Source: Candidatus Krumholzibacteriia bacterium (GTDB lineage: Bacteria; Krumholzibacteriota; Krumholzibacteriia; WVZY01; JAKEHA01). Taken from it: a stretch of DNA of 64,000 nt. Below are positions 28,611 to 47,950 of this stretch, piece after piece; within the stretch, counting starts at the first letter, position 1; every line of letters starts with the position of its first letter. The notes beneath the pieces are model-generated. The model saw only the letters and a program-made list of their open reading frames with translations, ran no database searches and was not told where the DNA came from. Made by a program: the position numbers and the translations under genes. The stretch lies in NCBI GenBank assembly GCA_036273975.1, contig DASUGO010000106.1, forward strand, positions 4,943 to 68,942. The letters run 5' to 3'.

Positions 28611-29714
28611 CTACTGAGCCTTCCCGACGCGCTTGCCGCTGGCCTTGTTGTTGGCGGCGGTCTTCTGCGCGCCCTTCTTTGCGGCACTCGCGCTCTTCAC
28701 GCTCGAACTCCTGGCGCTGACAACCTTCTCCGGCGCGGCCTTGGCGACCGGTGCCGGGCGGGTTGCGACGCGCGCTGTCGACTTCACGGCGGCCTTGTTG
28801 TCGGCACCCTGGCGGCTCGTCGACACGACGCGCACGCGTTCGGTTGTGGCCAGCGGGCGCGGCTCGCGCGTCTTGATCGCGGCACCCGTCGCGCGCGACA
28901 CGGTCGCGCGCTGCTTCGCCGCCTTGACGCCCGTGGACTCGCGGGCAGTCCGAACCGGAACCGCTTCGACGCGTCCCACCGACGCCACCCCGCCGCGATC
29001 CGGATAGGTCTGCTTGAACTTCACCGGACGCAGCACCTCGTACGGACTCGCGGCATTGCTGCGATACGACGCGTACACCGCGTTGCATTCGCGGCAGTGG
29101 TCGCCGATGCGCACGTGCACACCCACGCCGGCCCGGCACAGGTACGACGGGTAGCGGACCCACTCGTGCACATAGAAACGAGCGAAGCCGACACCCACGT
29201 AGTCCCAGCGGCACGACGCCGGAAGCAGCGACAGATAGAAGTCGTGGCAGGCCACGTACGGGTCGCCGTAAATACGGTAGCCGAAGCCGCCGACGAAGAC
29301 CGACGCGCCGTAGCACGAGTAATCGAACGGCACCGGACTGCCGACCGCGAACAGATGGGCAATGCCCACGCCGTCGAGCCGGTCGAGTCCCAGGTCGCAC
29401 GCCGCGTAGCGGTACGTGCGCCCGCCGTGCAACCACGCGCGGTCGTACGGCGAGGACGGATACAGCACATGCACGTACCCGGCCGTATCGACCAGCAGGA
29501 GCGTCGCGTAACAATCGTTGTCGGACCGCAGGTAGATCGACACGTCGCGGTATGAGGAGAACACGTCTCCGCCGTCCACCCACACCCGGACACCCGCCCG
29601 GCCACTGACCGCGAAGTCATTGTCGTGGGCCTGCGCGGTGGCAATTGTTCCCGCCGTCGCGGCCAGCGCGATCGCGGCCGCACCAATCCATAGATTCAAG
29701 GTTGAGCGTTTCAT
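28611..29714 (-). CDS. Secreted Cys/aromatic-rich protein with a Lys/Ala-rich, histone H1-like C-terminal tail
   Basis: A signal peptide (AAIALAATAGTIATAQA), about 14 Cys within ~200 aa, then a ~110-aa low-complexity basic K/A/S/T tail (AKAAPEKVV...KKGAQKTAANNKASGKRVGKAQ). It overlaps the upstream gene by 4 nt. Confidence 0.45.
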   Translation of the reverse strand: MKRSTLNLWIGAAAIALAATAGTIATAQAHDNDFAVSGRAGVRVWVDGGDVFSSYRDVSIYLRSDNDCYATLLLVDTAGYVHVLYPSSPYDRAWLHGGRTYRYAACDLGLDRLDGVGIAHLFAVGSPVPFDYSCYGASVFVGGFGYRIYGDPYVACHDFYLSLLPASCRWDYVGVGFARFYVHEWVRYPSYLCRAGVGVHVRIGDHCRECNAVYASYRSNAASPYEVLRPVKFKQTYPDRGGVASVGRVEAVPVRTARESTGVKAAKQRATVSRATGAAIKTREPRPLATTERVRVVSTSRQGADNKAAVKSTARVATRPAPVAKAAPEKVVSARSSSVKSASAAKKGAQKTAANNKASGKRVGKAQ

Positions 29715-30559
29715 CGCATGGCACCTCCTGTTATCGGGGCGAGCTCGGGGTTGTTTTCGACCGCCTGATACGCCCAGTCCAGCGTGGCGGTGGTCGTCGT
29801 GACCGCCTTCACCTGAACCTTCGCCATGTTGAAATCACCCTGACCGTCCAGAATCCGAACAATGTAGCTGTGGCCCTCGATCGCTTCCGCCTGTCCCGAC
29901 GGGGACCACCCCGTATCCGGGGCCCAATCGACGTAAACCAGGTCGATCAGACCGTAATCCTGGATATCGACTCCGGTCTTCGCGCGGAGAAAACGCGCTC
30001 CGCTCTGGGACTCGAAGTAGATATCCGTGGTGCCCAACGCCGCGGCTTGCGGGAGCCCTGACAGACTCGAAAAGTCATATCCCGCCCGCGACGGGTCTTG
30101 CCCCAACTCGACCAGCACCAAACCCGTACCTTCCGGCCTGGGGGTGTCGAACACCGTCTCCAGGCTCAACTCGCTCTCGTTACCCGCGCGATCAAACGCG
30201 GTCACTGCGTAAAACCATGTTTCGCCGTTCACGACATCCGTGTCGTCATAGTAGGTCTGATCCGTCGGTACCTCTCCGAGATAGAAGTAGGGACCGGGAT
30301 TCGTGGTCGACCGGTAAACGGCATAGCCCCCCAGGTCATCCTCCCAGTTCGCGTTCCAGTAAATGCTTACGACGCCATCACCCGTGATGCTGAAGACCCC
30401 GTCGGGCGGAAACGGAGCAGGATCCGCCGCCACGACGGGGCCATCATTCTTGCAACCAGCAACGAAAGGAAGCATCACTGCGGTAATCGCCACCACGGCA
30501 CCCGACAGCCGTACGGCGCGATCAATTGGGTTTCTTATGCGCAGGTGGTGCGTCATCAC
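29711..30559 (-). CDS. Lipoprotein with a fibronectin type-III-like domain
   Basis: A signal peptide with the lipobox LPFVAGC, and an Fn3 signature (YAVYRS...GETWFYAVTAFDRAGNES). It is the first gene of a two-gene operon. Confidence 0.55.
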   Translation of the reverse strand: MMTHHLRIRNPIDRAVRLSGAVVAITAVMLPFVAGCKNDGPVVAADPAPFPPDGVFSITGDGVVSIYWNANWEDDLGGYAVYRSTTNPGPYFYLGEVPTDQTYYDDTDVVNGETWFYAVTAFDRAGNESELSLETVFDTPRPEGTGLVLVELGQDPSRAGYDFSSLSGLPQAAALGTTDIYFESQSGARFLRAKTGVDIQDYGLIDLVYVDWAPDTGWSPSGQAEAIEGHSYIVRILDGQGDFNMAKVQVKAVTTTTATLDWAYQAVENNPELAPITGGAMR

Positions 30560-30572
30560 GAGGGTTCCCTAG

Positions 30573-30588
30573 CGCAAGCCATGTGCCA
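30573..30588 (-). promoter_or_regulatory. σ54 (RpoN) -24/-12 promoter: TGGCAC-atggc-TTGCg
   Basis: On the minus strand this reads TGGCACatggcTTGCg, a full consensus match with GG–N10–GC spacing. It lies directly upstream of the Fn3-lipoprotein operon. Two σ54 activators are encoded within 6 kb. The predicted TSS falls only ~5 nt before the annotated start codon. Confidence 0.45.
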
Positions 30589-31063: not shown

Positions 31064-31249
31064 CCCGTCCCCCACCAGATGGAAGTACATTTTACGCACG
31101 GGATGACTTCCGAGGAGGTGCTATCGCAACCGATGTGCCAAACCGGCAAGTTGTTCCCAATGATTACGAGCAGGTCATAACAGACTTTTTAACATACGGT
31201 TACGAGCGCCGGAGCGGCCCGGCGCACGTGGGCTGGAGCCACCCCCAAC

Positions 31250-31397: not shown

Positions 31398-34300
31398 CTA
31401 CTGGATATTGTAGCGTTTGATCTTCGAAAGCAGATTCGGATAGCTGATCCCGAGGTGCATGGCGACCTGGGACTTGTTCCCGGAATGACGGCGCATCGCG
31501 TCCAGGATCATCGTCTGTTCGATCTGTTCGATCCGCTGGCGCAGCGTGGCGGTCTCCCGGTCGATCGACTCCACCGGCTCGTGCACGCGCATCACCTCGG
31601 GGGCCAGGTGGCGGATGTCGAGCAACTCGTGCTCGTCGGCCAGGATGATGGCGCGCTTGATGACCTTCTCGAGTTCGCGAACGTTGCCCGGCCAGTGATA
31701 GTCCGACAGCTTTGCGATGAAATCGGGCGTCGCGTCTTCGATCTCCTTGTCCATCTCGCGCGACAGCTTCGCGATGTAATGATGCATCAGGAGCGGAATG
31801 TCCTCACGGCGTTCGCGCAGCGGCGGCACCGTCAGCGGAAAATCGTTGATCCGGTAGAAGAAGTCCTCGAGGAAACGGCCCTCTTCGACCAGCTTCAGCA
31901 GGTTGCCCTTGGATGCACATACAACGCGCACATCCACCGGCATCAGGTCGTTGGAACCGACGCGGCGCACTTTCCCGGAATCCAGGAAGTGCAGCAGCTT
32001 GCCCTGCATCGCCATCGAGGTCTTGCCGATCTCGTCGAGGAAGATCGTACCGCCGTTGGCCTCGGTCAGAAGGCCGTCCTTGTCGAAATAGGCGTTCGTG
32101 AAAGCGCCACGAACGTGCCCGAACAGCTCGGACTCGAGCAGGTGCTCGGGCAATGCCGCGCAGTTGACGTGAACGAAGGGGCGATCACGGCGCTCACTCA
32201 ACAGGTGCACGGCGTACGCGATGAGACCTTTGCCGGTCCCGGTCTCGCCCTGAAGCAGAACGGTCGCATCCGAGTGCGCCACCCGCTCCGCCAGGTTGAG
32301 GAGCTGAATCATGTCCTTGTTGTCAGTGACGATGCTCTCGAAGCCCTTGCCCGCGCTTCCCCGCGTCCGCGTGGCGCGTCCACGCTGCTCGGTGCGCAGC
32401 AGTTCGAACACCGACAACGAAATCAAGCTCGAGTACGCGGCGACGAAATGCAGGTCGTCCTGTCCGATCGGGCCGCAGGCCGGATCCGAACCCTTCAGGA
32501 TGCAAAGGGCTCCGAGACGTTCGCGGTCGAACCCGAGGTCCTGGACGAGCAGCGTTCCGCGCGCGCTGATCTTGTCACGCAATTCGGCAAGCGACGGGTC
32601 ATGGTCGATGTCGGCTACCAGCACCGCGCCCTGCTCACGATTCGCGCGCCGCGAATACCAGGTCTCGATGGCCTGCGCCTCGCGGGCGCCGATCCCGAGC
32701 CGCGATATGGCCTGGAAGCCGCGGCCGCTGGCTGCCGGCACCGCGACGAATCCCGCGGCGGCACCGAGCTTTTCGACAATCAGCGCGAGCGTGGAGTCGA
32801 GGCCTTTGGCGAGCTGTTCCCGCGAGCGCGCGCCGTTCTGCATCTCGCCGAGCACGGAGAATTGATCGATCACGCGGCGGGTCGCGTTCGACATCTGCGC
32901 TTCGACCCGGCGGCGCAACGCACCAACGGCCCTGCGGAAACGCGGGCAATCCTCGTCGGACGCGATGCGATCGGCCTCGTACACCGCGAGCAGCGCGTCG
33001 TCCAGGTTGCCGAGGCGGCGTTCGACACCGGCCAGCAGCACATGCGAAATGATCAACTCGCGCGGCTCGTCGATTTTACCCAGTTCGACCAGACTGTCCG
33101 TGAGCATCGACTTCGCCCTGAGCAAAGCGGCCTCGGCACGCGAGCGGCCGCACACGCGCGCGAGCAACTGCTGGCTCACGACGCGTTCGTAGGAATTCCC
33201 GTATTCGCCGAACACGTTGACGCTCTCGGTCAGCGCTTCGACCGCGCCGTCGATGTCGCCCAGCCGCGCCCGGCACAGGCCGCGTGTGCGGTGGAAGAAC
33301 CCGACCTCGTAGAGTTCGCCGCAGGCGGTCGCGATGCGCAGCCCCTCTTCGATCGACGCCAGCGCGTCGTTGGGCGCTCCGGAGCGGTACTGGGTGTCAC
33401 CCAGACGGCGCAGGCACTCGGCGACGATGTCACCTTCGGGTGACAGTTTACGTGCGCGTTCCAGCGCCGCATCGAGGTTCGCGCGCGCCCCTCGCAGGTC
33501 GCTGCGGGCGATCATCAATTCACCGATGTACTCATCGGCCAGCGCGGACTCGCGCTCGTAACCGAGCTCGCCGCACATCGCCTGCGCGCGCAGCAGCGCC
33601 TTTTCACCGCGGCTGTACGTGCCGCGCGCGACCTGGGTGCGGCCGAGCATCAGCAGCGCACGCGCAAGACTCGCCTGATCGCCAAAACGCTCCGCGCCGG
33701 CCGCGGCGGCATCGAATGCGCTGATCGCGTCTTCGAAGCGGCGCAGCTTGGCGTAGACAACCCCCAGGTTCAGCTGCACCACGATGAGGTGCTGCGAGAG
33801 CCCGAGCGTCTTGGCCAGATCGATGGACTTGGAAAGCGACGCGAGCGCGCGCGTCCAGCGGCACGCGTTCTTATGCAGGAGTCCCAGACTGTTGTAAACG
33901 TACGCGATGCCAACCTTGTCCTCGGCGCGCCGGTACGACGACAGCGCATCCATGAAGAACTCCTCCGCCTCGGACACCAGGCCGAGACGTTGGTAGCAGT
34001 TGGCGATCAGGAGCTGAACGTAGGCGACTTCGGAATGCGACGGTGACCGCTTGAGCTTGCGGTACGCCGCGAAGGCGGTCTTGAGCGCCGCGTCGTAGGA
34101 GCCCTGCCAGAGTAACAGGTAGCCTTCGCGGTACTCGATCTGTCCCCGGGCCTCGTCGGTGAGGGCCACCGGCAGGCGGGCTGCTTCGGCCAGACATTCC
34201 CGGGAAGCGGCGTAGTCACCGCGCTTGCGGTGGCAGTCGCTGATGCGCATGAGCAACCGGAAGCGATCCGGATAGACCGGAAGGTCCGGCTGCTCAAGCG

Positions 34301-34463
34301 CACCCCGGAAGTAGTCCAAAGCCGTTGAGAAGTTCTCAGTCGCGAAGTGCATCTCTCCGATTTCCTCGCCTGGCGAGCAAACCGAATCGTGCGCGTTGTC
34401 GCGGCTTCCCTTCTCCAGCCACTCTCTCTCGTCCCGTGCGTCGGACATAGAATCCTCGAGCAA
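31398..34463 (-). CDS. σ54-dependent transcriptional activator with N-terminal TPR repeats and a GAF-like sensor (TPR–GAF–AAA+ σ54 interaction–Fis HTH)
   Basis: The AAA+ σ54 core is recognisable (LLQGETGTGKGLIA, ESELFGH, GAFTNA, GGTIFLDEIG, RVVCAS, the GAFTGA-like motif, WPGNVREL). The C-terminal HTH is QVAMHLGISYPNLLSKIKRYNI. The first ~520 aa carry TPR-like repeats. Confidence 0.8.
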   Translation of the reverse strand: MLEDSMSDARDEREWLEKGSRDNAHDSVCSPGEEIGEMHFATENFSTALDYFRGALEQPDLPVYPDRFRLLMRISDCHRKRGDYAASRECLAEAARLPVALTDEARGQIEYREGYLLLWQGSYDAALKTAFAAYRKLKRSPSHSEVAYVQLLIANCYQRLGLVSEAEEFFMDALSSYRRAEDKVGIAYVYNSLGLLHKNACRWTRALASLSKSIDLAKTLGLSQHLIVVQLNLGVVYAKLRRFEDAISAFDAAAAGAERFGDQASLARALLMLGRTQVARGTYSRGEKALLRAQAMCGELGYERESALADEYIGELMIARSDLRGARANLDAALERARKLSPEGDIVAECLRRLGDTQYRSGAPNDALASIEEGLRIATACGELYEVGFFHRTRGLCRARLGDIDGAVEALTESVNVFGEYGNSYERVVSQQLLARVCGRSRAEAALLRAKSMLTDSLVELGKIDEPRELIISHVLLAGVERRLGNLDDALLAVYEADRIASDEDCPRFRRAVGALRRRVEAQMSNATRRVIDQFSVLGEMQNGARSREQLAKGLDSTLALIVEKLGAAAGFVAVPAASGRGFQAISRLGIGAREAQAIETWYSRRANREQGAVLVADIDHDPSLAELRDKISARGTLLVQDLGFDRERLGALCILKGSDPACGPIGQDDLHFVAAYSSLISLSVFELLRTEQRGRATRTRGSAGKGFESIVTDNKDMIQLLNLAERVAHSDATVLLQGETGTGKGLIAYAVHLLSERRDRPFVHVNCAALPEHLLESELFGHVRGAFTNAYFDKDGLLTEANGGTIFLDEIGKTSMAMQGKLLHFLDSGKVRRVGSNDLMPVDVRVVCASKGNLLKLVEEGRFLEDFFYRINDFPLTVPPLRERREDIPLLMHHYIAKLSREMDKEIEDATPDFIAKLSDYHWPGNVRELEKVIKRAIILADEHELLDIRHLAPEVMRVHEPVESIDRETATLRQRIEQIEQTMILDAMRRHSGNKSQVAMHLGISYPNLLSKIKRYNIQ

Positions 34464-36433: not shown

Positions 36434-37504
36434 ATGCAGCAACTTCATCTTCGCAACCTTTCTCTCGCGGACCTCCGCCAATGGGTGGCCGACGCGGGCG
36501 AGCCGGAGTATCGCAGCCGGCAGCTCGCGACGTGGATCTACGCCCGGCTGGAAGACGACCCTGCCCGGATGACCAACCTGCCCCAGGCGTTCCGGGACCG
36601 GCTCGCGGGGCAGACGCGGGTGCGCGCCCTCGCAACCGCGGCGGTGCAGGAGTCGGCGATTGATGGCACACGCAAGTTCCTGTTCCAGTTGCCGGACGGC
36701 AACCGGGTCGAATCGGTGTTGATGCGTTACGACAAGCGCAACACGGTGTGCATCTCGTCACAGGTGGGATGCCCGCTCGATTGTGTATTCTGCGAAACGG
36801 CGAAGGGACGCTACCAGCGCAACCTGACAAGCGGCGAGATCCTCGACCAGATCTGCGTGCTCAAACGCGAGGCAGGGCCGCCGTCGGAGAAGATCAACAT
36901 CGTGTTCATGGGCATGGGCGAACCGCTTCTGAACCTCGCGGCGCTGATTCCGGCCATCCGGACGCTCAACGATCCCGCCGGATTGAACCTGGGAGAAAAG
37001 CGCATCACCGTTTCCACGTCGAGCTTCCCGGATCGCATCCGCGAACTGGCGGACTCGGACGCGGCGTGCTCGCTGGCGCTGTCGCTGAACGCCCCCAACG
37101 ACGAGGTTCGCGCCCGCCTGATGCCGAAGGCGGCGCGCTTCCCGATCGACGAACTGCTCGACGCCGCGCGTTACTTCGCCGCGTCCGGCAAGCGGCGCGT
37201 CACCATGGAATACGTGCTGATTCCCGGGCTCACGATGGGTGACGACGCGGCCGACCAGTTGGGGCGTCTGGTCCGCCACCAGCCGTTCAAGGTGAACCTG
37301 ATTCCGTACAACCCGGGCCGGGTGGATCCGTTTCCGCGCCCGGGCGAGCCGGAAATCGAACGCTTCGTGCGGCGGCTGCTCCCGGTGGCCCCGGCGGTCA
37401 CCGTGCGGCGCAGCCGCGGAGTCGACATCGACGCGGCGTGCGGTCAGTTGTGGAATCTGAGCTTGAATCAGAAGAAGAAGCGGCCTGTGGAAGGGGCGGC
37501 ATGA
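36434..37504 (+). CDS. rlmN: 23S rRNA/tRNA (adenine-C2)-methyltransferase RlmN (radical SAM)
   Basis: The radical-SAM CPLDCVFCETAK cluster is present, and the RlmN-specific N-terminal and C-terminal regions (LIPYNPGRVDPFPRP, MGMGEPLLN). The likely start is MQQLHL at 36434. Confidence 0.85.
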   Translation: MQQLHLRNLSLADLRQWVADAGEPEYRSRQLATWIYARLEDDPARMTNLPQAFRDRLAGQTRVRALATAAVQESAIDGTRKFLFQLPDGNRVESVLMRYDKRNTVCISSQVGCPLDCVFCETAKGRYQRNLTSGEILDQICVLKREAGPPSEKINIVFMGMGEPLLNLAALIPAIRTLNDPAGLNLGEKRITVSTSSFPDRIRELADSDAACSLALSLNAPNDEVRARLMPKAARFPIDELLDAARYFAASGKRRVTMEYVLIPGLTMGDDAADQLGRLVRHQPFKVNLIPYNPGRVDPFPRPGEPEIERFVRRLLPVAPAVTVRRSRGVDIDAACGQLWNLSLNQKKKRPVEGAA

Positions 37505-37554
37505 CCCGTCGGGGAGGAGAACGTCAGCACCCCCCTCCACAGGCACCATAGACG

Positions 37555-38601
37555 TTACTTGAGGAGCAGCAGTTTCACCGTCTCGCGGGCATCGCCCACC
37601 TGGACGGCCGCATAGTACGTGGAACTCGCCACCGGATTGCCGGCGCGATCCGTCCCATCCCAACGCACCACGAAGTCACCCGACGCACGCCCCGCATACA
37701 GGTCGCGCACCAGCGCGCCGTTGACCGCGTAGATCTTCACCGACACCGGTTCGGCCATGTCGGCCAGCTCGGACGGCATGGTCACGCGAATCTCGGTATC
37801 CGGGTTGAACGGATTCGGATAGCTGGTCGCCGCGATGGCCGGGCCGCGTTCCGCGGTGCCGCGTGCGACGCGCACGAAGAAATTCTCCAGCCCGCTCACC
37901 GAACCCGGCGACGCCACCTCGATGTTCTCGACACGACCGTCGGTGCGCGCATCGCTGCCGCCGAACAACACACGGAAGTCCTCGGCGAAAATTTCCTTCG
38001 GGCGGTAGGCGTGACTCGCGGTGTCCGAGAAGCGCGCATCGTCAATACCACGGATGCGGCGATACTCGCCCCACGCCGCCGATCCATCCGGCATGTAACG
38101 GTTGTGGAAAACGTGTCCGATCTCATGCGTCACGATGTACGCGGCCACGGCCGGATCGATATCCAGCACGTGCGGACTCAGAAACACGTCCTTGCCGCTC
38201 GTCGCGCTCACGAGCAGGTTGCGGCGCGGATACGGCAGCAGGTACACGCGCACCGAGAGTCGCAGCGACGGGTGGTCGATCTCGCGCAACGACTCGCTGA
38301 CCAGGGCATCGGTGAACGGGTGAAACTGGCCGTCACCCTTGTTGTAAATCGACGGATCGTTGATGTCGGTGATGACGGGCAGGTAGCGGCCGTCGTCCAG
38401 TTGAATCGCCGGGTCGCCGGCCAGCGTCGTGAGGCGGTCAGTCAGGTACTCGGCGTCGTAGATGGTCACCGAGAGGCCGTTGGCGAGTTCCATATGCCGG
38501 GGGGAGGATGCCTCGGCCCGATCAACGGCGGCCAGCGACACGGTCGCCACTGCGACCAGCACCGCTTTTTGCGCCATACCGTATATAATCCGACGGACCA
38601 T
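37555..38601 (-). CDS. Secreted zinc metallopeptidase-like protein (HEIGH motif) with a C-terminal T9SS sorting domain
   Basis: A signal peptide (AVLVAVATVSLAAVDRAEA), the motif VTHEIGHVFHN, and a C-terminal ~80 aa (SYPNPFNPDTEIRVT...YYAAVQVGDARETVKLLLLK) typical of a Por_Secre_tail. The start is either M at 38601 or M at 38577. Confidence 0.55.
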   Translation of the reverse strand: MVRRIIYGMAQKAVLVAVATVSLAAVDRAEASSPRHMELANGLSVTIYDAEYLTDRLTTLAGDPAIQLDDGRYLPVITDINDPSIYNKGDGQFHPFTDALVSESLREIDHPSLRLSVRVYLLPYPRRNLLVSATSGKDVFLSPHVLDIDPAVAAYIVTHEIGHVFHNRYMPDGSAAWGEYRRIRGIDDARFSDTASHAYRPKEIFAEDFRVLFGGSDARTDGRVENIEVASPGSVSGLENFFVRVARGTAERGPAIAATSYPNPFNPDTEIRVTMPSELADMAEPVSVKIYAVNGALVRDLYAGRASGDFVVRWDGTDRAGNPVASSTYYAAVQVGDARETVKLLLLK

Positions 38602-38897
38602 TAATTTCTCCTCCAACCCGGTATCTGCATTGGACATTCCCGGGTGGACGGAGGCGCCCCACCGCGGGTCCTGCGGGGGCGCTTCGGGCCGGACCATTCA
38701 AAATTAAGTAGTTACAGGAGCCGAGGTTGTGAGGCAGGCAACGGCCAGTCCGATTTGCACAAATGTTGCGCGAGCCGAGTCGGGGCGGACCCGTGAACCC
38801 GTTGGGCCAGAGAGAGTTGGGAGGTTTTCCACAGGCGCCGGGGGGGACGATGGGGCCGGGCACCCAGGTCGGGGCCGGAACGGTGGACCTGCAGCGG

Positions 38898-40223
38898 CTA
38901 GAAGTTCGCCCCGGTGGAGAAGTAGGGGCGGATGCGGCCGCGGGCGCCGTAGGCAAGGTCCAGCCGGACGACGTCCTGAATCGGCGAAAAGAGGCGGACC
39001 CCGACGCCGAACCCGCTGTGGAAATTGTCGTAGCGGAACTCCTCCGGCGTCGTCCACGCGATCCCGGTGTCGACAAACGCGACCACGCCGAGCTGGAAGT
39101 CGGTGATGCCGATGAACGGGATCCGGTACAGCACCTTCGGCCACGGCATCATACGCACCTCCAGCGACTGCACCCAGCGGTGCGCGGCGCGGAAGTCACT
39201 GCGCTCATAGCCGCGGATGGTGCCGGGACCACCGATACCAAAGCGGATGTAGCTCGGGTATTCGCCGAGCTGGATATTCGCGACCGAGTTCAACCCGACC
39301 ACGGTGGTGCGATCGAGAGGAAAGAAGAAGCGCACGTCGTTATCGACGCGATAATAGGTGTCCTGCGAGGCGTTCAACACCTGATTGGACAACAGGTTGA
39401 TGTAGAAGTAGGAGCCGTTGCGCGGCTTCAGGCTGGCGTCGCGGTTGTCAAAGCGGAAGCCGATCGAGGGGCTGAGCAGGTCCTCATCGACCTTGTCGGT
39501 GTTTCGCGCGCCCACGCGGTTGTGCGCGAGCGCCAGCCCGAAAATCAGCTGCGAGAACGCAATCCGGCTGCGTGTCAGCGGCACCGACGTGCTCACCTGG
39601 CCGCGCGTCTGCTCGATGATGTTGGGCTCGATCGCCGGCTCCTGCCGGTTGAAGTACGAGACACGCGCGCCCAGGCCGATATGATTCCACCCGAGCCACG
39701 CCGTCGACCACGCCGCGGCGGCGGAGTCGTTGTTGCGGTTGTCGCGCAGTGCATCGAGCGAGAAGTTCTCCAGCCGCCTTCGGAAGTTGCGGTCCTTCCA
39801 CTTCAATCCGTACACGATGCGTTCGGTGTTGATGTCGTAGTCGAGCACCGGGTAGATGAGATTCAACAGCAGCGTGGGACGCTCGGTGACCACCACGTGG
39901 ATGATGCAGCGGTCGGCAGCAATCGGTTCCACGTGCACCGCCACGGTGGCGAACGGACTCAGGTCCGAGATGTAGCGCTGGTCGCGCTCCACCGAACGCG
40001 CCTCCAGTCGGTTGCCCTGGCGCGACTCCATCTCGCGGACCACGGCGAAGGACTTCACGCGCGTGTTGCCGTGGACGTAGACGGTATCGATCATGCGCCC
40101 CTGGGCCCACTGGTATGCCTCGCTCTCGAAGCGCTGCACCGTGGCGCTGGAACTCGCAGGGGAAAGACCGGCCATCAGGGGCACGAGGAAAAACAAGGCC
40201 CCTCTCCATAGGGAAAACTGCAT
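38898..40223 (-). CDS. Omp85/BamA/TamA-family outer-membrane protein (one POTRA-like region plus a surface-antigen β-barrel)
   Basis: A signal peptide from the internal start MQFSLWRGALFFLVPLMAGLSPASSSA. The C-terminal barrel has an Omp85 signature (RGYERSDFRAAHRWVQSLEVR...GVAFVDTGIAW...SGFGVGVRLFSP...RLDLAY) and ends with an aromatic residue (GANF). Confidence 0.6.
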   Translation of the reverse strand: MQFSLWRGALFFLVPLMAGLSPASSSATVQRFESEAYQWAQGRMIDTVYVHGNTRVKSFAVVREMESRQGNRLEARSVERDQRYISDLSPFATVAVHVEPIAADRCIIHVVVTERPTLLLNLIYPVLDYDINTERIVYGLKWKDRNFRRRLENFSLDALRDNRNNDSAAAAWSTAWLGWNHIGLGARVSYFNRQEPAIEPNIIEQTRGQVSTSVPLTRSRIAFSQLIFGLALAHNRVGARNTDKVDEDLLSPSIGFRFDNRDASLKPRNGSYFYINLLSNQVLNASQDTYYRVDNDVRFFFPLDRTTVVGLNSVANIQLGEYPSYIRFGIGGPGTIRGYERSDFRAAHRWVQSLEVRMMPWPKVLYRIPFIGITDFQLGVVAFVDTGIAWTTPEEFRYDNFHSGFGVGVRLFSPIQDVVRLDLAYGARGRIRPYFSTGANF

Positions 40224-40291
40224 CCCAACAAGGATACGCCCCCGGTGAACGGGGGCGAAAGTGCAAATACAGATGAGGACGGGGCGCCCGC

Positions 40292-41482
40292 TCAGGAGAC
40301 CGGGTTCACCGAGAGGTCGCCAACCGGAGATCCGGGGGGCTGAACGCCCACCGGGGGCCGTGTCCCGAAGCGGCTGAGGACGATCGAACCCAGACCGACG
40401 ATGTAACCGAACAGCCACACGACGGCGCTGACGATCTGCAGGAAGATGTAGAAATTGATGGGGCCGTGCCCGACGGAATCGAACAGGAACGCCACCAGTT
40501 CCGGAACCGATAGCGCGAGGAACCCAACCAGCAGCCGCACCATGACTCCCCCGGTCAGCCCCACGCGCGCGCTGATCGCGCGCCCCACCGCGTACGCAAA
40601 CACGGTGCACGCGATCACGAACACGCCGATGTAACTCAGGAACAGAATGATGGCGAGCGGAATGCCAATCACCGTGATGACCAGCGGGATAATGACGATG
40701 AGAATGGCAAACTGCAACGCAATCGACGCGAGCACGCCGGCGCCGAAGCTGCGCAGCACGCCCGCGGAAAGGTGCTCGCTGGTGCGCTCCACGCGCCCGC
40801 GCAGGAACAGCATGGTGATGAGGAACATGATCAGCCCGACGAACAGCATGAAGGCGGAACCGATGGCGCGCAGCTTGTCGCCTTCCAGGTTGAGTGCGTC
40901 GCCCACGTGCGTCGCGATGCCGCCCACGAGAATCTTTTCGCCGCGGATCACGACGTCGTCGTCTTCGACGATCTTGCCCCCGATAGCAACGATGTCGCCC
41001 TTGACCTCGGCGCCGTTGCGGACGCGAATCTCGCCGCCCAGCACAACCACCGAGCCGGCCACCGTGCCCTCGATGATGGCGTTTCCGCCAAACACGACCA
41101 CGTCGCCGGGGATCACTTCGCCGGGGGCCACGTAGACGCTCTCGCCCACGCGCACGATACTGTCGTCACCACCATGGTCGTCGGTGGAGCCGAAGTTGAA
41201 GTCGTACTGCAGCGCACCCGTGGAGTCGGAACCCTCACCCTCGATGCGCACGCCGCTGCCGCCGATCACGATTCTCTTCTTCACGGTCGGCGCCGGCGGC
41301 GCTGGCGGCGCCGTAACGCCGGAAACCGGCGGAGCCTCCGGAATGTCCGGGATGTCCACGATTATGGTGTCGGGGGATGCGACGGCCGAGGTGTGCACGG
41401 CGGGCGTCAGCGTTGCAAACGACGCCGCCAGCACGAACAACCCCGGCATCATGGCCAGGCGACTAAAGCGAGAACATGGCAT
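40292..41482 (-). CDS. Membrane protein with a bactofilin-like (polymer-forming β-helix) repeat domain and a C-terminal multi-TM region
   Basis: A signal/anchor segment, then repetitive GxxVxVxGxVxGxV runs (VVVFGGNAIIEGTVAGSVVVLGGEIRVRNGAEVKGDIVAIGGKIV), then 5-6 predicted TM helices. It overlaps the anti-sigma gene by 20 nt. Confidence 0.5.
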   Translation of the reverse strand: MPCSRFSRLAMMPGLFVLAASFATLTPAVHTSAVASPDTIIVDIPDIPEAPPVSGVTAPPAPPAPTVKKRIVIGGSGVRIEGEGSDSTGALQYDFNFGSTDDHGGDDSIVRVGESVYVAPGEVIPGDVVVFGGNAIIEGTVAGSVVVLGGEIRVRNGAEVKGDIVAIGGKIVEDDDVVIRGEKILVGGIATHVGDALNLEGDKLRAIGSAFMLFVGLIMFLITMLFLRGRVERTSEHLSAGVLRSFGAGVLASIALQFAILIVIIPLVITVIGIPLAIILFLSYIGVFVIACTVFAYAVGRAISARVGLTGGVMVRLLVGFLALSVPELVAFLFDSVGHGPINFYIFLQIVSAVVWLFGYIVGLGSIVLSRFGTRPPVGVQPPGSPVGDLSVNPVS

Positions 41483-42086
41483 GACCCGACGGCCTCTTCC
41501 TGCGCCCGGAGCGCGTGGTGGAAAGCACGATGGCGGCGGCCACAACACCCGCGGCGATCAGCATCGCCGGGGAGACGTATGCGGTGACGGCGTGGAAGAC
41601 CGTCCGTGCCGCACGGAAATAGGGTTCCAGCGCGGAGATGGTCGAAATGGATCCCAGCACTCCCTGTGCCCACAGCACCGCGCGCGCAAAGCCCTCGGCC
41701 GCGCCCGCCAGCGATCCACGGGTGCCGGAGAGAATCACAGCCACGGGGACGTACAGCGCAAGAACCAGCGCAGCGGCGGTCAACGGGTGCCGTACCCGCG
41801 CCGGCACGGCAAAGTAACGGTCGGCCATGCGGCGCGCCCACGGGAAGCGCGGTTCGTGGATAAGCCCTTCCGCGTGGAGGTGCGCCATCACCGCGACACC
41901 GAGGCGGGCCGGCGGGTCGAAGCGCGGCATCTCGCGCAGACTCCGGAACACGTCGCGGTACGCGATGACATCGGACTCGCACGCGGCGCACTCGGTCACG
42001 TGGTAAACAAAATCGTTGCGCTCGAGGGTCGGCAGGCGTCCCTCGAGGTAGTTCTGCATCAGGCTTCTGGCGGTTTCGCAGTTCAT
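41463..42086 (-). CDS. Putative zinc-finger (zf-HC2/ZAS) anti-sigma factor, single-pass membrane protein
   Basis: The N-terminal Cx20HxxxCxxC pattern (CETARSLMQNYLEGRL...HVTECAACE), one TM helix (LTAAALVLALYVPVAVIL) and an extracytoplasmic C-terminus. Confidence 0.55.
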   Translation of the reverse strand: MNCETARSLMQNYLEGRLPTLERNDFVYHVTECAACESDVIAYRDVFRSLREMPRFDPPARLGVAVMAHLHAEGLIHEPRFPWARRMADRYFAVPARVRHPLTAAALVLALYVPVAVILSGTRGSLAGAAEGFARAVLWAQGVLGSISTISALEPYFRAARTVFHAVTAYVSPAMLIAAGVVAAAIVLSTTRSGRRKRPSGHAMFSL

Positions 42087-42110
42087 TACAATCCGGTCCC
42101 CCGACCGGCG

Positions 42111-43205
42111 TCAGCGTGTGGCGGACTCGGTCCGCTCCAGTATACTCACGTTGCCGCTCGCCGTCTCTATATCGACGCGCGCGGCGCCCGATCCAACGAC
42201 TCCCTGCAGCCGGCGCCGGTCGACGCGGCTGACCTTGATCGGGAGGTCGCCTTCAATTGATCCGCTCGACGTCTGCACGTCGAGCTTGAATCCAAAATCT
42301 TTCACGGCCACGTACAGAACATCGATGTCGCCGCTGGACGAACTCAACTCGAAGATGCGTCCGGCGCTCGGCACGATCATCACTTCAATATTACCGCTGG
42401 ATGATGTGGCGTCCACGTTGCCGGTGACTTCGTGAATGGTCCCGTCGCCACTCGCGGCGCGGAAACTCACGCTCCCGGAGCAGCCGTCCAGCGTGAAATT
42501 CCCGCTGGTGAGGCTGACCTCGGCGTCCTTCCCGATGCGGCTGACGCGGGCGTCGCCACTGGTGGCCTCCAGCTGGAGCTTGCCCGTGACGTTGTCGACG
42601 GTAATATTGCCGCTCGTCGCGCTGGCTTCCAGGTCTCCCCCTGCCTCGGCCACTTCGAGATCGCCGCTCGTCACGCGCGCCTCGACGCCTCCGGTCACCG
42701 CGCGCACCGACACATTGCCGCTGGTCGCGGTCGCGGCCACGGACCCGCCGATATTGGAAATGCGCACGTCGCCGCTCGACGCCGACGCATCCACTGAAAA
42801 TGCATAGGGGACTTCAATGGTGTAGTCGACCCAGGCGGACCGGCGGTCGCCCTTGACCAGCGACATCAGGCCGTGGCTGCCGTGGCGATCCTCGTGCGTA
42901 TCGATGACGACCTTGTCGCCATGGGTCTCGATCTCAACTTGCAGCTGATCGAGTATTTCGGCCGCCTCGTCGTTGTCCTTGCCGTTGACGGTCTTGACCG
43001 CAATGATGGAAACCGCATCCAGCCCGGCCTTGCCCACGATCACCGTGCGGCCGGACCCGTTGCGGATCACCAGCGACGTCCTGCCGGCCGCGTCGACCGT
43101 CTGTTTTTCTTCGCGTTCGACGCGGTTTCCGGGGTCCGCCCCGGCGCTGGTCGCGGTCAGGAGCGCCAGAACCAGCGGCGCCATCTGCAAAATCCCGTGC
43201 TTCAT
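42111..43205 (-). CDS. DUF4097-family β-repeat protein (putative adhesin/LiaG-YvlB-like), secreted
   Basis: A signal peptide from MKHGILQMAPLVLALLTATSAGA, then many repeats of the (T/S)SG(D/N)(V/I/L)xV type spanning ~250 aa. Confidence 0.6.
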   Translation of the reverse strand: MKHGILQMAPLVLALLTATSAGADPGNRVEREEKQTVDAAGRTSLVIRNGSGRTVIVGKAGLDAVSIIAVKTVNGKDNDEAAEILDQLQVEIETHGDKVVIDTHEDRHGSHGLMSLVKGDRRSAWVDYTIEVPYAFSVDASASSGDVRISNIGGSVAATATSGNVSVRAVTGGVEARVTSGDLEVAEAGGDLEASATSGNITVDNVTGKLQLEATSGDARVSRIGKDAEVSLTSGNFTLDGCSGSVSFRAASGDGTIHEVTGNVDATSSSGNIEVMIVPSAGRIFELSSSSGDIDVLYVAVKDFGFKLDVQTSSGSIEGDLPIKVSRVDRRRLQGVVGSGAARVDIETASGNVSILERTESATR

Positions 43206-43374
43206 CGTGGGGTAACCTCCATCTCCACCACCCGCCCCGGCAACCGGGGTCTGTAACTCGTGGAGTCTACGGAAAGGCCACCGGAAATGTTCGCCCCGCG
43301 GCCATTTTTCCGCGCAACGCCGGGCCGGGCGCCGGAAGTACGGCATATCCGATTAATTAACAATGAGTTACACA

Positions 43375-43950
43375 TCATGACAGAAAGTCCTCATTCCCGA
43401 GCAGATTCTTGAGCATCTCCCGCGCCCGGTGGATGCGGGCCTTGACCGTCCCGAGCGGGACCGACAGGTGGTCGGCAATCTCCTCATAGGAGAGGTCCTC
43501 CTGGTGGCGGAGGATCAGCATGATCCGGTAGTGCTCGGGGAGCGAGGTGATGGCGGCCTCGAGCCGCTCCATCTTCTGGTTGCGATCCAGGCGCTCCTCG
43601 GGGGTCGGATCCGCGGTCGCGTACTGGCGCTGGATCTCGCCCTTCTCGCCATCGATGGGCTGGTCCATCGGGAGCGTGTCGATGCGCCGCTTGCGCAGAT
43701 AGTCGATGCAGAGGTTGGACGTGATCTTGAAGAGCCAGCTCGAGAACGCATACGCGGAGTTGTAGCGGTCGAGCGAGGCGAACACTTTAATGAAGGACTC
43801 CTGGGCCAGATCGGTGGCCTCGTCGCGGTTGCGGACCATGCGCAGGCAAATGCTGAACACCGCGCGCTCGTACTTTTCGAGCAACGCCCGGTAGGCACGC
43901 TCGTCTCCCGAGCGCGCTCTCGCGACCAGCTGGATGTCCTCTTCTTTCAC
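43375..43950 (-). CDS. ECF-type RNA polymerase sigma factor (σ70 family group 4, RpoE-like)
   Basis: Region 2 (DLAQESFIKVFASLDRYNSAYAFSSWLFKITSNLCIDYLRKRR) and region 4 (LSYEEIADHLSVPLGTVKARIHRAR). The likely start is GTG at 43950 (VKEEDIQLV), and the upstream extension in the ORF track is probably spurious. Confidence 0.8.
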   Translation of the reverse strand: MKEEDIQLVARARSGDERAYRALLEKYERAVFSICLRMVRNRDEATDLAQESFIKVFASLDRYNSAYAFSSWLFKITSNLCIDYLRKRRIDTLPMDQPIDGEKGEIQRQYATADPTPEERLDRNQKMERLEAAITSLPEHYRIMLILRHQEDLSYEEIADHLSVPLGTVKARIHRAREMLKNLLGNEDFLS

Positions 43951-44161
43951 GGCGATTGAGTCGTGTTGATGGACACGCGCGTGCCGCGCCCGAGCCCGGG
44001 CGCACCACCCCGTCGCACCCAGGGGGCGCCGGAGTGGATCGTAAAGGTGTGCCGGTCCAGCGCGCTGCGGCACGCCCGCGCCGGAAACCGGATGACATGC
44101 GAGGCCGTTCGGATACTCCGCGCTCCAGGGCCATCGCCCCAAGCGCTGAAAGTGATTTATG

Positions 44162-44191
44162 TTGACACATTTTGGAAGCGGTTTCTACAGT
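44162..44191 (+). promoter_or_regulatory. Putative σ70-type promoter for eno (TTGACA–N18–TACAGT)
   Basis: A -35 hexamer ttgaca at 44162-44167 and a -10-like tacagt at 44186-44191, ~40 nt upstream of the eno ATG. Confidence 0.35.
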
Positions 44192-44220
44192 CAGATGGTC
44201 GCTGTCCCAACTTCCCCTAG

Positions 44221-45516
<1,296 letters not shown>

Positions 45517-46073: not shown

Positions 46074-47950
<1,877 letters not shown>

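Follow-up and report, generated by a model that had tools for sequence, protein, structure and literature searches.

Sigma factors of the extracytoplasmic function (ECF) type make up the third-largest signalling system in bacteria, and for most ECF groups we know of no described input mechanism. In Bacillus subtilis, the ECF01-type sigmaW-RsiW pair is governed by regulated proteolysis through PrsW and RasP. In the Escherichia coli sigmaE-RseA-RseB-RseC system, rpoE is under positive autoregulation, RseA does not belong to the zinc anti-sigma factors, and the Omp85 gene bamA is a sigmaE target. Three-component ECF systems are represented by Cupriavidus CnrY-CnrX-CnrH and B. subtilis sigmaM-YhdL-YhdK; in both, the anti-sigma factor is a minimal membrane protein that needs a second protein, of the membrane or the periplasm, as its partner. 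Here we describe a six-gene cluster from a Candidatus Krumholzibacteriia bacterium (contig DASUGO010000106.1), which lies at positions 37,555 to 43,950 of the 64,000-nucleotide stretch that was analysed (hereafter the window). We consider it probable that Krumholzibacteriia/Latescibacterota have here elaborated a three-gene ECF module of wide distribution, and that the module in this form responds to envelope stress, operates by negative feedback only, and relies for sensing on a DUF8173-family membrane protein together with a DUF4097 (Toastrack) protein.

All six genes are encoded on the minus strand. The first encodes an ECF (group 4) sigma factor of the SigW/RpoE-like type (43375..43950; 191 aa, GTG start) and the second a secreted Toastrack beta-helix protein with an N-terminal signal peptide (42111..43205; 364 aa). 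They are followed by genes for a class I zinc (ZAS) anti-sigma factor of the zf-HC2 type (41463..42086; 207 aa) and for the DUF8173-family protein, a beta-helix with five transmembrane (TM) segments (40292..41482; 396 aa). The last two encode an Omp85-family outer-membrane protein with a signal peptide, an N-terminal region of about one POTRA length and a beta-barrel (38898..40223; 441 aa), and a predicted secreted, gluzincin-like metallopeptidase with a C-terminal domain of the FlgD_ig or type IX secretion system (T9SS) type (37555..38577; 340 aa). The cluster is flanked by a divergent enolase gene (eno) and a convergent rlmN, with two sigma54 activator genes just past rlmN. An earlier note on this DNA had described these genes as one six-gene operon with the DUF4097 gene inserted between the sigma and anti-sigma genes; the open reading frame (ORF) listing and profile searches bear out the content, order, strand and coordinates, including that insertion and the identity of an ECF sigma/anti-sigma envelope module, whereas the single operon is not supported.

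To compare this arrangement with its relatives, GTDB species genomes were scanned, which gave 80 loci, and the ORFs of all 88 loci were searched with the six window proteins. The same six genes recur in the same order in more than 20 Krumholzibacteriia/Latescibacterota genomes, so their arrangement is not chance, and the synteny that the earlier note suggested looking for is present. Three long contigs with close homologs carry the same six genes as well as the same flanks (i.e., eno, rlmN and the sigma54 activator genes), a synteny that shows conservation within the clade only.

The position of the putative ECF promoter sets this locus apart from those of most phyla. The earlier note had proposed a search for an ECF-type motif upstream of 43,950; none was found there, and the motif sits after the sigma gene instead. 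This putative sigmaW-type promoter, GAACATTT-N13-CGTA (i.e., GAAC-N17-CGTA), lies at 43292-43268 on the minus strand, approximately 60 nt upstream of the Toastrack ATG, and reads GAACATTTCCGGTGGCCTTTCCGTA within the sigma-to-Toastrack spacer. When the corresponding spacers were aligned, a conserved bipartite element, GCGAACtTTT-N12/13-CGTAGA, was observed. The strict motif matched only once in the 64 kb window (shuffled sequences give 0.08), and no match was found upstream of the sigma, Omp85 or peptidase genes or elsewhere in the window. The B. subtilis sigmaW consensus is tGAAACnTTTt...CGTA (PMC5758882), and the motif in the window and its orthologs matches it, including the T-tract. A motif of the sigmaW type fits with SigW proteins being the closest relatives of this sigma factor.

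Among the six-gene loci, the motif lies downstream of the sigma gene in 22/24 and upstream in 0/24, whereas in the other loci it lies upstream in 32/51 and downstream in 2/51. Its position is thus mutually exclusive between the two sets. Loci outside Krumholzibacteriia carry a near-identical TGCAACTTTT-N12-CGTA 43-285 nt upstream of sigma, and a looser motif follows sigma in several FCB and Gemmatimonadota loci that have no Toastrack gene (L007, L008, L036, L040, L062 and L071). Two further loci without Toastrack, L029 and L033, have TTGAAAC-N16-CGTA directly between the sigma and anti-sigma genes; in L026 and L028 the same element is just upstream of the anti-sigma gene and falls within the 3' end of Toastrack. 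Upstream of Toastrack, L026 has the usual copy as well, and L028 a GAAT variant only. The positions in these four loci are what would be expected of a remnant if Toastrack had been inserted upstream of an older internal promoter. The gene order that the earlier note called unusual is real, and we read it as a lineage-specific insertion of Toastrack downstream of a relocated sigma-dependent promoter.

The sigma factor itself was identified by its matches to Pfam Sigma70_r2 (66 bits), Sigma70_r4_2 (61.6 bits) and TIGR02937 (124.8 bits against a cut-off of 42.9), and it has only regions 2 and 4, as is characteristic of ECF (group 4) proteins. Its best NCBIfam match was SigW (PRK09641) at 176.5 bits, under the cut-off of 209, and it scored 154.8 of the 243 bits required by the SigW equivalog TIGR02948. 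Among solved structures, B. subtilis SigW is the nearest relative (5wuq, E=2.7e-33), and the orthologs of the window protein are also 191 aa long. Judged by its promoter type this sigma factor appears SigW-like in its working, yet by the equivalog cut-offs it is no SigW ortholog. The anti-sigma factor matched zf-HC2 (PF13490) with 25.2 bits against a cut-off of 22.2 and has the residues of the ZAS class (C3, H29, C33 and C36, with the motif H29-x3-C33-x2-C36). Its predicted topology is a cytoplasmic N-domain followed by TM segments at 102-120 and about 163-190, with an outside loop of approximately 45 aa between them.

Compared with B. subtilis sigmaW-RsiW, the locus shares the nearest sigma factor by sequence, the promoter type and a membrane-bound HxxxCxxC anti-sigma factor. 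It differs in that sigW-rsiW is a two-gene autoregulated operon whereas the promoter here follows sigma, and in that the two-TM anti-sigma factor here is nearly devoid of an outside domain and is accompanied by conserved third (DUF8173) and fourth (Toastrack) proteins. With the E. coli sigmaE cluster it has in common an ECF sigma factor, a membrane anti-sigma factor, additional periplasmic or inner-membrane accessory proteins and an envelope and outer-membrane-protein theme, but the accessory proteins are of unrelated fold. DUF8173 is likewise unrelated to the partner proteins of CnrYXH and sigmaM-YhdL-YhdK, and those systems also differ from this locus in gene order and promoter layout.

The Toastrack, anti-sigma and DUF8173 genes are tightly packed. 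The anti-sigma gene starts 24 nt past the Toastrack stop, and 20 nt are shared between the end of the anti-sigma gene and the start of the DUF8173 gene, an overlap reported in the earlier note that is exact in the sequence and is present in most orthologous loci. Across loci the Toastrack to anti-sigma gap is 6-26 nt and the anti-sigma to DUF8173 gap is usually -20 nt, with wider spacing on either side: 104-236 nt from sigma to Toastrack (166 nt in the window), 34-108 nt from DUF8173 to Omp85 (62-68 nt in the window by end counting), and 199-612 nt from Omp85 to the peptidase gene (2231 nt in L034; 293-320 nt in the window, depending on the start codon). The earlier note had the operon run on into the Omp85 and protease genes; the promoter motifs in the sigma-Toastrack and Omp85-peptidase spacers and a hairpin before Omp85 speak against this. 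Because of where the promoter motifs lie, the sigma gene and the peptidase gene would be outside the sigma-dependent unit, and the six genes do not look like one operon.

The DUF8173-to-Omp85 spacer contains two adjacent hairpins (40220..40257, minus strand). In the hairpin scan the first, GC-rich in its stem, was terminator-like, and the Omp85 start codon lies within the second; the predicted RNA fold has a free energy of -32.7 kcal/mol (z = -2.67). Orthologs retain a GC hairpin with CGTATCCTTG after it, in which the stem sequences differ. The pairing of the second hairpin over the Omp85 start is also kept among orthologs, as GTATCC/GGGTAT, TATGC/GCGTA and GTATC/GATAC. RNAalifold found no consensus structure for this spacer, and an Rfam search of 37000-44400 returned no family. 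The start-codon hairpin may exert translational control of Omp85.

Upstream of the peptidase gene, a putative sigma54-type -24/-12 element, GGAATGTCCAATGCA, lies at 38640-38626 on the minus strand, approximately 50 nt before the ATG. It has the GG-N10-GC spacing of sigma54 promoters, is the single such element found in the window where 0.1 is expected, and is found before the peptidase gene in 20/27 loci, in the conserved form GGGGAA(T/C)A-N4-TTGCA. A palindrome (TGGGTG...CCCA; 38850..38867, minus strand) just past the Omp85 stop is conserved in the spacer alignment and lies about 210 nt upstream of the element, where an enhancer-binding-protein site would be expected; an enhancer site or a transcript end are its candidate roles. 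The peptidase gene is probably a separately controlled, sigma54-dependent neighbour of the ECF module.

Outside the Krumholzibacteriia group, 47/53 loci have an ECF sigma gene 700-1500 nt upstream of DUF8173 and in the same orientation; these loci include Chloroflexota (Anaerolineae, Ktedonobacteria and Caldilineae), Gemmatimonadota, Armatimonadota, Vulcanimicrobiota and Acidobacteriota. The ORF between sigma and DUF8173 carries HxxxCxxC near its N-terminus in 39/49 loci. Examples of the arrangements seen are sigma, a small ORF and DUF8173 (L006), sigma, a gap and DUF8173 (L008), and sigma, a zf-HC2 anti-sigma factor, a DUF8173-like protein and a tailed protein (L007). Among the 88 loci, only those of Krumholzibacteriia/Latescibacterota have Toastrack, Omp85 or the tailed peptidase; within this group L029 and L033 have no Toastrack and L007 and L071 have neither Toastrack nor Omp85. 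Because the linkage extends to loci outside Krumholzibacteriia, the ancient conserved core, as judged from these comparisons, is the trio of sigma, zinc anti-sigma and DUF8173.

The DUF8173 protein of the window was modelled with AlphaFold2 (AF2) from 56 homologs, with a mean pLDDT of 80 and values above 94 for the beta-helix and membrane domain. In the model, a signal helix at the N-terminus is followed by a disordered Pro-rich linker, a short beta-helix at 109-186 (pLDDT >95) and a five-helix membrane domain at 201-369. The charge pattern (positive-inside) fits a beta-helix outside the membrane and a C-terminus inside, in agreement with the AF2 model. Close homologs are hypothetical proteins of Krumholzibacteria and Latescibacteria, whereas more distant homologs carry PF26514 (DUF8173), with or without Bactofilin, in precomputed Pfam annotations and match the window protein at E = 1e-20 to 1e-7; the precomputed record for a protein identical to that of the window lists no PF26514 match. 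Alignment of the family with further members by hhalign gave probabilities of 99.8-99.9%. The family comprises 21,636 clusters at 50% identity when homologs at E<=1e-3 are counted, and 4,380 at E<=1e-30. A full-text literature search for DUF8173 returned no paper that mentions the family, and searches that paired Toastrack with anti-sigma, or ECF with either bactofilin or polymer-forming cytoskeletal proteins, returned nothing relevant.

The earlier note had called this protein a fusion of bactofilin-type repeats to a polytopic membrane domain, and the joining of a beta-helix to a TM domain is borne out. The window protein itself is sub-threshold for Pfam Bactofilin (PF04519; 15.8 bits, E=0.017, cut-off 27.9), whereas long family members with several beta-helix segments score 28-53 bits, and the best PDB match of the family profile is the Thermus thermophilus bactofilin 6ria (E=0.0084). 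Since the long members pass the Pfam cut-off and the profile matches 6ria, the description of the repeats as bactofilin-like still holds at the family level, as far as profile matches go. Foldseek returned no significant PDB match for the model (BacA came first, at E=0.32), and its membrane domain was without a match. Like the bactofilins (e.g., BacA, 2n3d, and 6ria), DUF8173 has a small right-handed beta-helix repeat; unlike these cytoplasmic polymer-formers, its helix follows a signal peptide, is predicted from this and from the positive-inside pattern to be extracytoplasmic, and is fused to a five-TM domain.

The Toastrack protein matched DUF4097 (PF13349) with 86.4 bits against a cut-off of 22.9 and the NCBIfam LiaG family (NF049997) with 99.4 bits, which does not reach its cut-off of 285. 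Its N-terminus is hydrophobic at residues 6-24, consistent with a signal peptide, and NCBI annotates an identical protein from a Krumholzibacteria metagenome-assembled genome as a DUF4097 family protein. An hhalign comparison of the DUF8173 family with the window Toastrack found no relationship, so the two beta-helices are not detectably homologous. The Lia/Psp-type systems (LiaG, LiaF, VraT and YvlB) resemble this locus in placing a DUF4097 Toastrack in an envelope-stress signalling cluster, but their regulators are two-component or PadR proteins, whereas here a Toastrack with a signal peptide is combined with DUF8173 and an ECF sigma factor. A PSP survey notes Toastrack neighbourhoods with sigma factors and argues that Toastrack is intracellular (PMC11237479).

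Toastrack with DUF8173 recurs independently outside Krumholzibacteriia. In one such locus (L089, 5001-7474) the Toastrack gene overlaps the DUF8173 gene by 4 nt; in the other (L090, 2279-6014) a sigma gene, with TGAAAC-N16-CGTA upstream of it, is joined by genes for a secreted Toastrack protein, for DUF8173 and for a LiaF-like Toastrack protein. The Toastrack proteins of both loci have signal peptides. A further contig carries a sigma gene, a 282-aa ORF, genes for two Toastrack proteins and a sigma54 activator gene.

Taken together, these data suggest a circuit in which the anti-sigma factor would hold sigma at the membrane through its zinc-binding N-domain, while DUF8173 and, in this lineage, the secreted Toastrack would supply or modulate envelope sensing. 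We assign the sensing to partner proteins because only about 45 anti-sigma residues face outward, and to DUF8173 in particular because of this tiny loop, the translational coupling of its gene to that of the anti-sigma factor, and the linkage across phyla. Under stress the anti-sigma factor would be inactivated, either by proteolysis or by a conformational change, and free sigma would then fire the internal promoter, giving more Toastrack, anti-sigma factor and DUF8173; some Omp85 would probably be made by read-through past the hairpin. As the sigma gene would not be driven by a promoter of its own type, the circuit would have negative feedback without positive autoregulation of sigma, and its response would be self-limiting.

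Several points weigh against this scheme. All promoters of the locus are placed by their motifs, and inspection of the sequence upstream of sigma did not identify the promoter of the sigma gene itself. The terminator scan found no terminator after sigma, which means that sigma and the downstream genes may be co-transcribed and that read-through from sigma's promoter is possible. The hairpin before Omp85 may be a terminator, in which case Omp85 would be outside the unit, and the sigma54-type element departs from TGGCAC, reading GGGAAT. Contact of DUF8173 or Toastrack with the anti-sigma factor is a proposed partnership only; a DUF8173 protein fused to an anti-sigma domain was sought in 10 long members, and only extra bactofilin repeats were found. 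Finally, L090 is without a recognisable anti-sigma gene. Its gene content fits an output role of the accessory proteins as well as an input role, and one of Toastrack, DUF8173 or the LiaF-like protein may itself control sigma there.

This leads to the best-surviving alternative, that Toastrack, DUF8173 and Omp85 are the output of sigma, acting in Psp/Lia-like membrane protection or envelope repair, with the anti-sigma gene in the transcript for feedback only. We regard this as unlikely, but it deserves weight. All three genes lie downstream of the putative sigma-dependent promoter, whose motif has no second match in the 64 kb, and L090 combines sigma, Toastrack and DUF8173 in a locus without an anti-sigma gene. 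The window DUF8173 protein had no match to PspC (PF04024), whereas homologs scored 24.3 and 20.5 bits against a cut-off of 25, the former falling just short, and JGI annotates such homologs as PspC. LiaG, LiaF and YvlB, which are Toastrack proteins, are members of effector or regulator sets for envelope stress (PMC11237479). The association of DUF8173 with the sigma/anti-sigma pair, however, is nearly one-to-one across phyla and often translationally coupled, which is more typical of a signalling partner, and the anti-sigma factor has almost no outside domain of its own. Output and input roles are also not mutually exclusive.

The other alternatives turn on the Omp85 and peptidase genes. The Omp85 protein matched Pfam Omp85 (PF01103) with 69.7 bits against a cut-off of 24 and aligns to positions 324-720 of the BamA model (i.e., POTRA5 and the barrel). 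It falls below both equivalogs, with 92 of 297 bits for BamA (TIGR03303) and 29 of 625 bits for TamA, and among solved structures the barrels of TamA and BamA come nearest to it (E = 4e-5 to 1e-3). Only about 130 aa precede the barrel, whereas five or three POTRA domains are expected of BamA and TamA, respectively; one ortholog has a weak POTRA match. The peptidase carries the motifs HEIGHVFHN and PKEIFAEDFR, of which HExGHxxHN and PxEIxAEDFR are invariant in 41 orthologs (residues H151, E152, G154, H155, H158, N159 and E195-R202). The second motif is similar to the third-ligand helix of lethal-factor and MtfA peptidases. No Pfam or NCBIfam peptidase family matched the window protein. Foldseek comparison of its AF2 model (pLDDT 88) gave weak matches of the catalytic part to M1 aminopeptidases (E = 2e-4 to 2e-3, with low TM-scores) and matches of the tail to the C-terminal domains of PorU and PorZ and to FlgD (prob 1.0, E from 2.4e-4). 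The tail also matched FlgD_ig (PF13860; 35.2 bits, cut-off 27).

The earlier note had read the locus as a circuit dedicated to T9SS cargo, i.e., all six genes as one operon for cargo monitoring or quality control with Omp85 and the tailed protease as its functional heart, and this now seems very doubtful. It is true that practically every Krumholzibacteriia locus has the Omp85 and tailed peptidase genes after DUF8173, that the tail is similar to the C-terminal domains of PorU and PorZ, and that a related tailed protein comes after the module in L007 and L071, which have no Omp85. However, the core is widespread in Chloroflexota and other phyla that have neither Omp85 nor the tailed peptidase at the locus, and the peptidase gene is set off by its wide gap and carries a sigma54-type element rather than an ECF motif. 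The tail scores 14 bits against the 23 required by the T9SS type A sorting domain (TIGR04183) and is found in no other ORF of the window, and no T9SS machinery gene was seen at the locus, the rest of the genome not having been searched for such genes. The flanking eno, rlmN and sigma54 activator genes are equally conserved in the three long contigs, which makes adjacency within the clade weak evidence of function. That Omp85 and the peptidase form a self-contained export pair of a transporter and the substrate it carries (two-partner secretion or PlpD-like) and are chance neighbours of the ECF module is the least probable reading, since their co-occurrence throughout the clade and the single POTRA-length region of this Omp85, unlike the five POTRA of BamA, are outweighed by their different putative promoters, by L007 and L071 having a peptidase-like gene without Omp85, and by a tail of the T9SS/FlgD_ig type rather than the TPS domain of TpsA.

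Some further features of the window were observed. Upstream of sigma, at 44094-44146 on the minus strand, lies a conserved hairpin (GCGCTTGG..CCTGGAGCGC) whose stem is kept by differing sequences in orthologs, and beside it a 22-nt block, TATCCGAACGGCCTCGCATGTC, is conserved in about 15 loci. The conserved block was considered as a sigma54, sigma70 or ECF promoter and rejected, as the spacings do not fit. The enolase promoter (TTGACA-18-TACAGT, 44162-44191, plus strand) is almost invariant across Krumholzibacteriia loci, which suggests that the phylum uses classical sigma70-type promoters. Perfect sigma54 sites (TGGCAC-N5-TTGC) are present at 30574-30588 and 31126-31140 on the minus strand, the former approximately 15 nt upstream of a lipoprotein-like ORF (29711-30559) and downstream of a TPR-containing sigma54 activator gene (31398-34463). 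At 46074-47950, a serine-recombinase-like gene in two pieces (minus-strand ORFs 46739-47950 and 46107-46742) directly adjoins a tRNA-Met gene (46074-46150, plus strand). It has the look of a large serine recombinase with a frameshift, sitting at a site of integration into a tRNA gene; in orthologous loci other genes occupy this position.

The locus points to a very large family without a literature, the members of which are nearly always linked to a sigma/anti-sigma pair of the ECF type. Tentatively, DUF8173 proteins may be a large and so far unrecognised class of extracytoplasmic sensors or co-anti-sigma partners for SigW-like ECF factors in many phyla, which would sense envelope condition through a bactofilin-type beta-helix that faces outward and possibly self-associates, and the Krumholzibacteriota may have rewired this module to negative feedback only and added Toastrack and a dedicated Omp85. 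With the same sigma factor, promoter motif and partners, and the promoter lying either before or behind sigma, these loci offer a natural experiment in circuit design.

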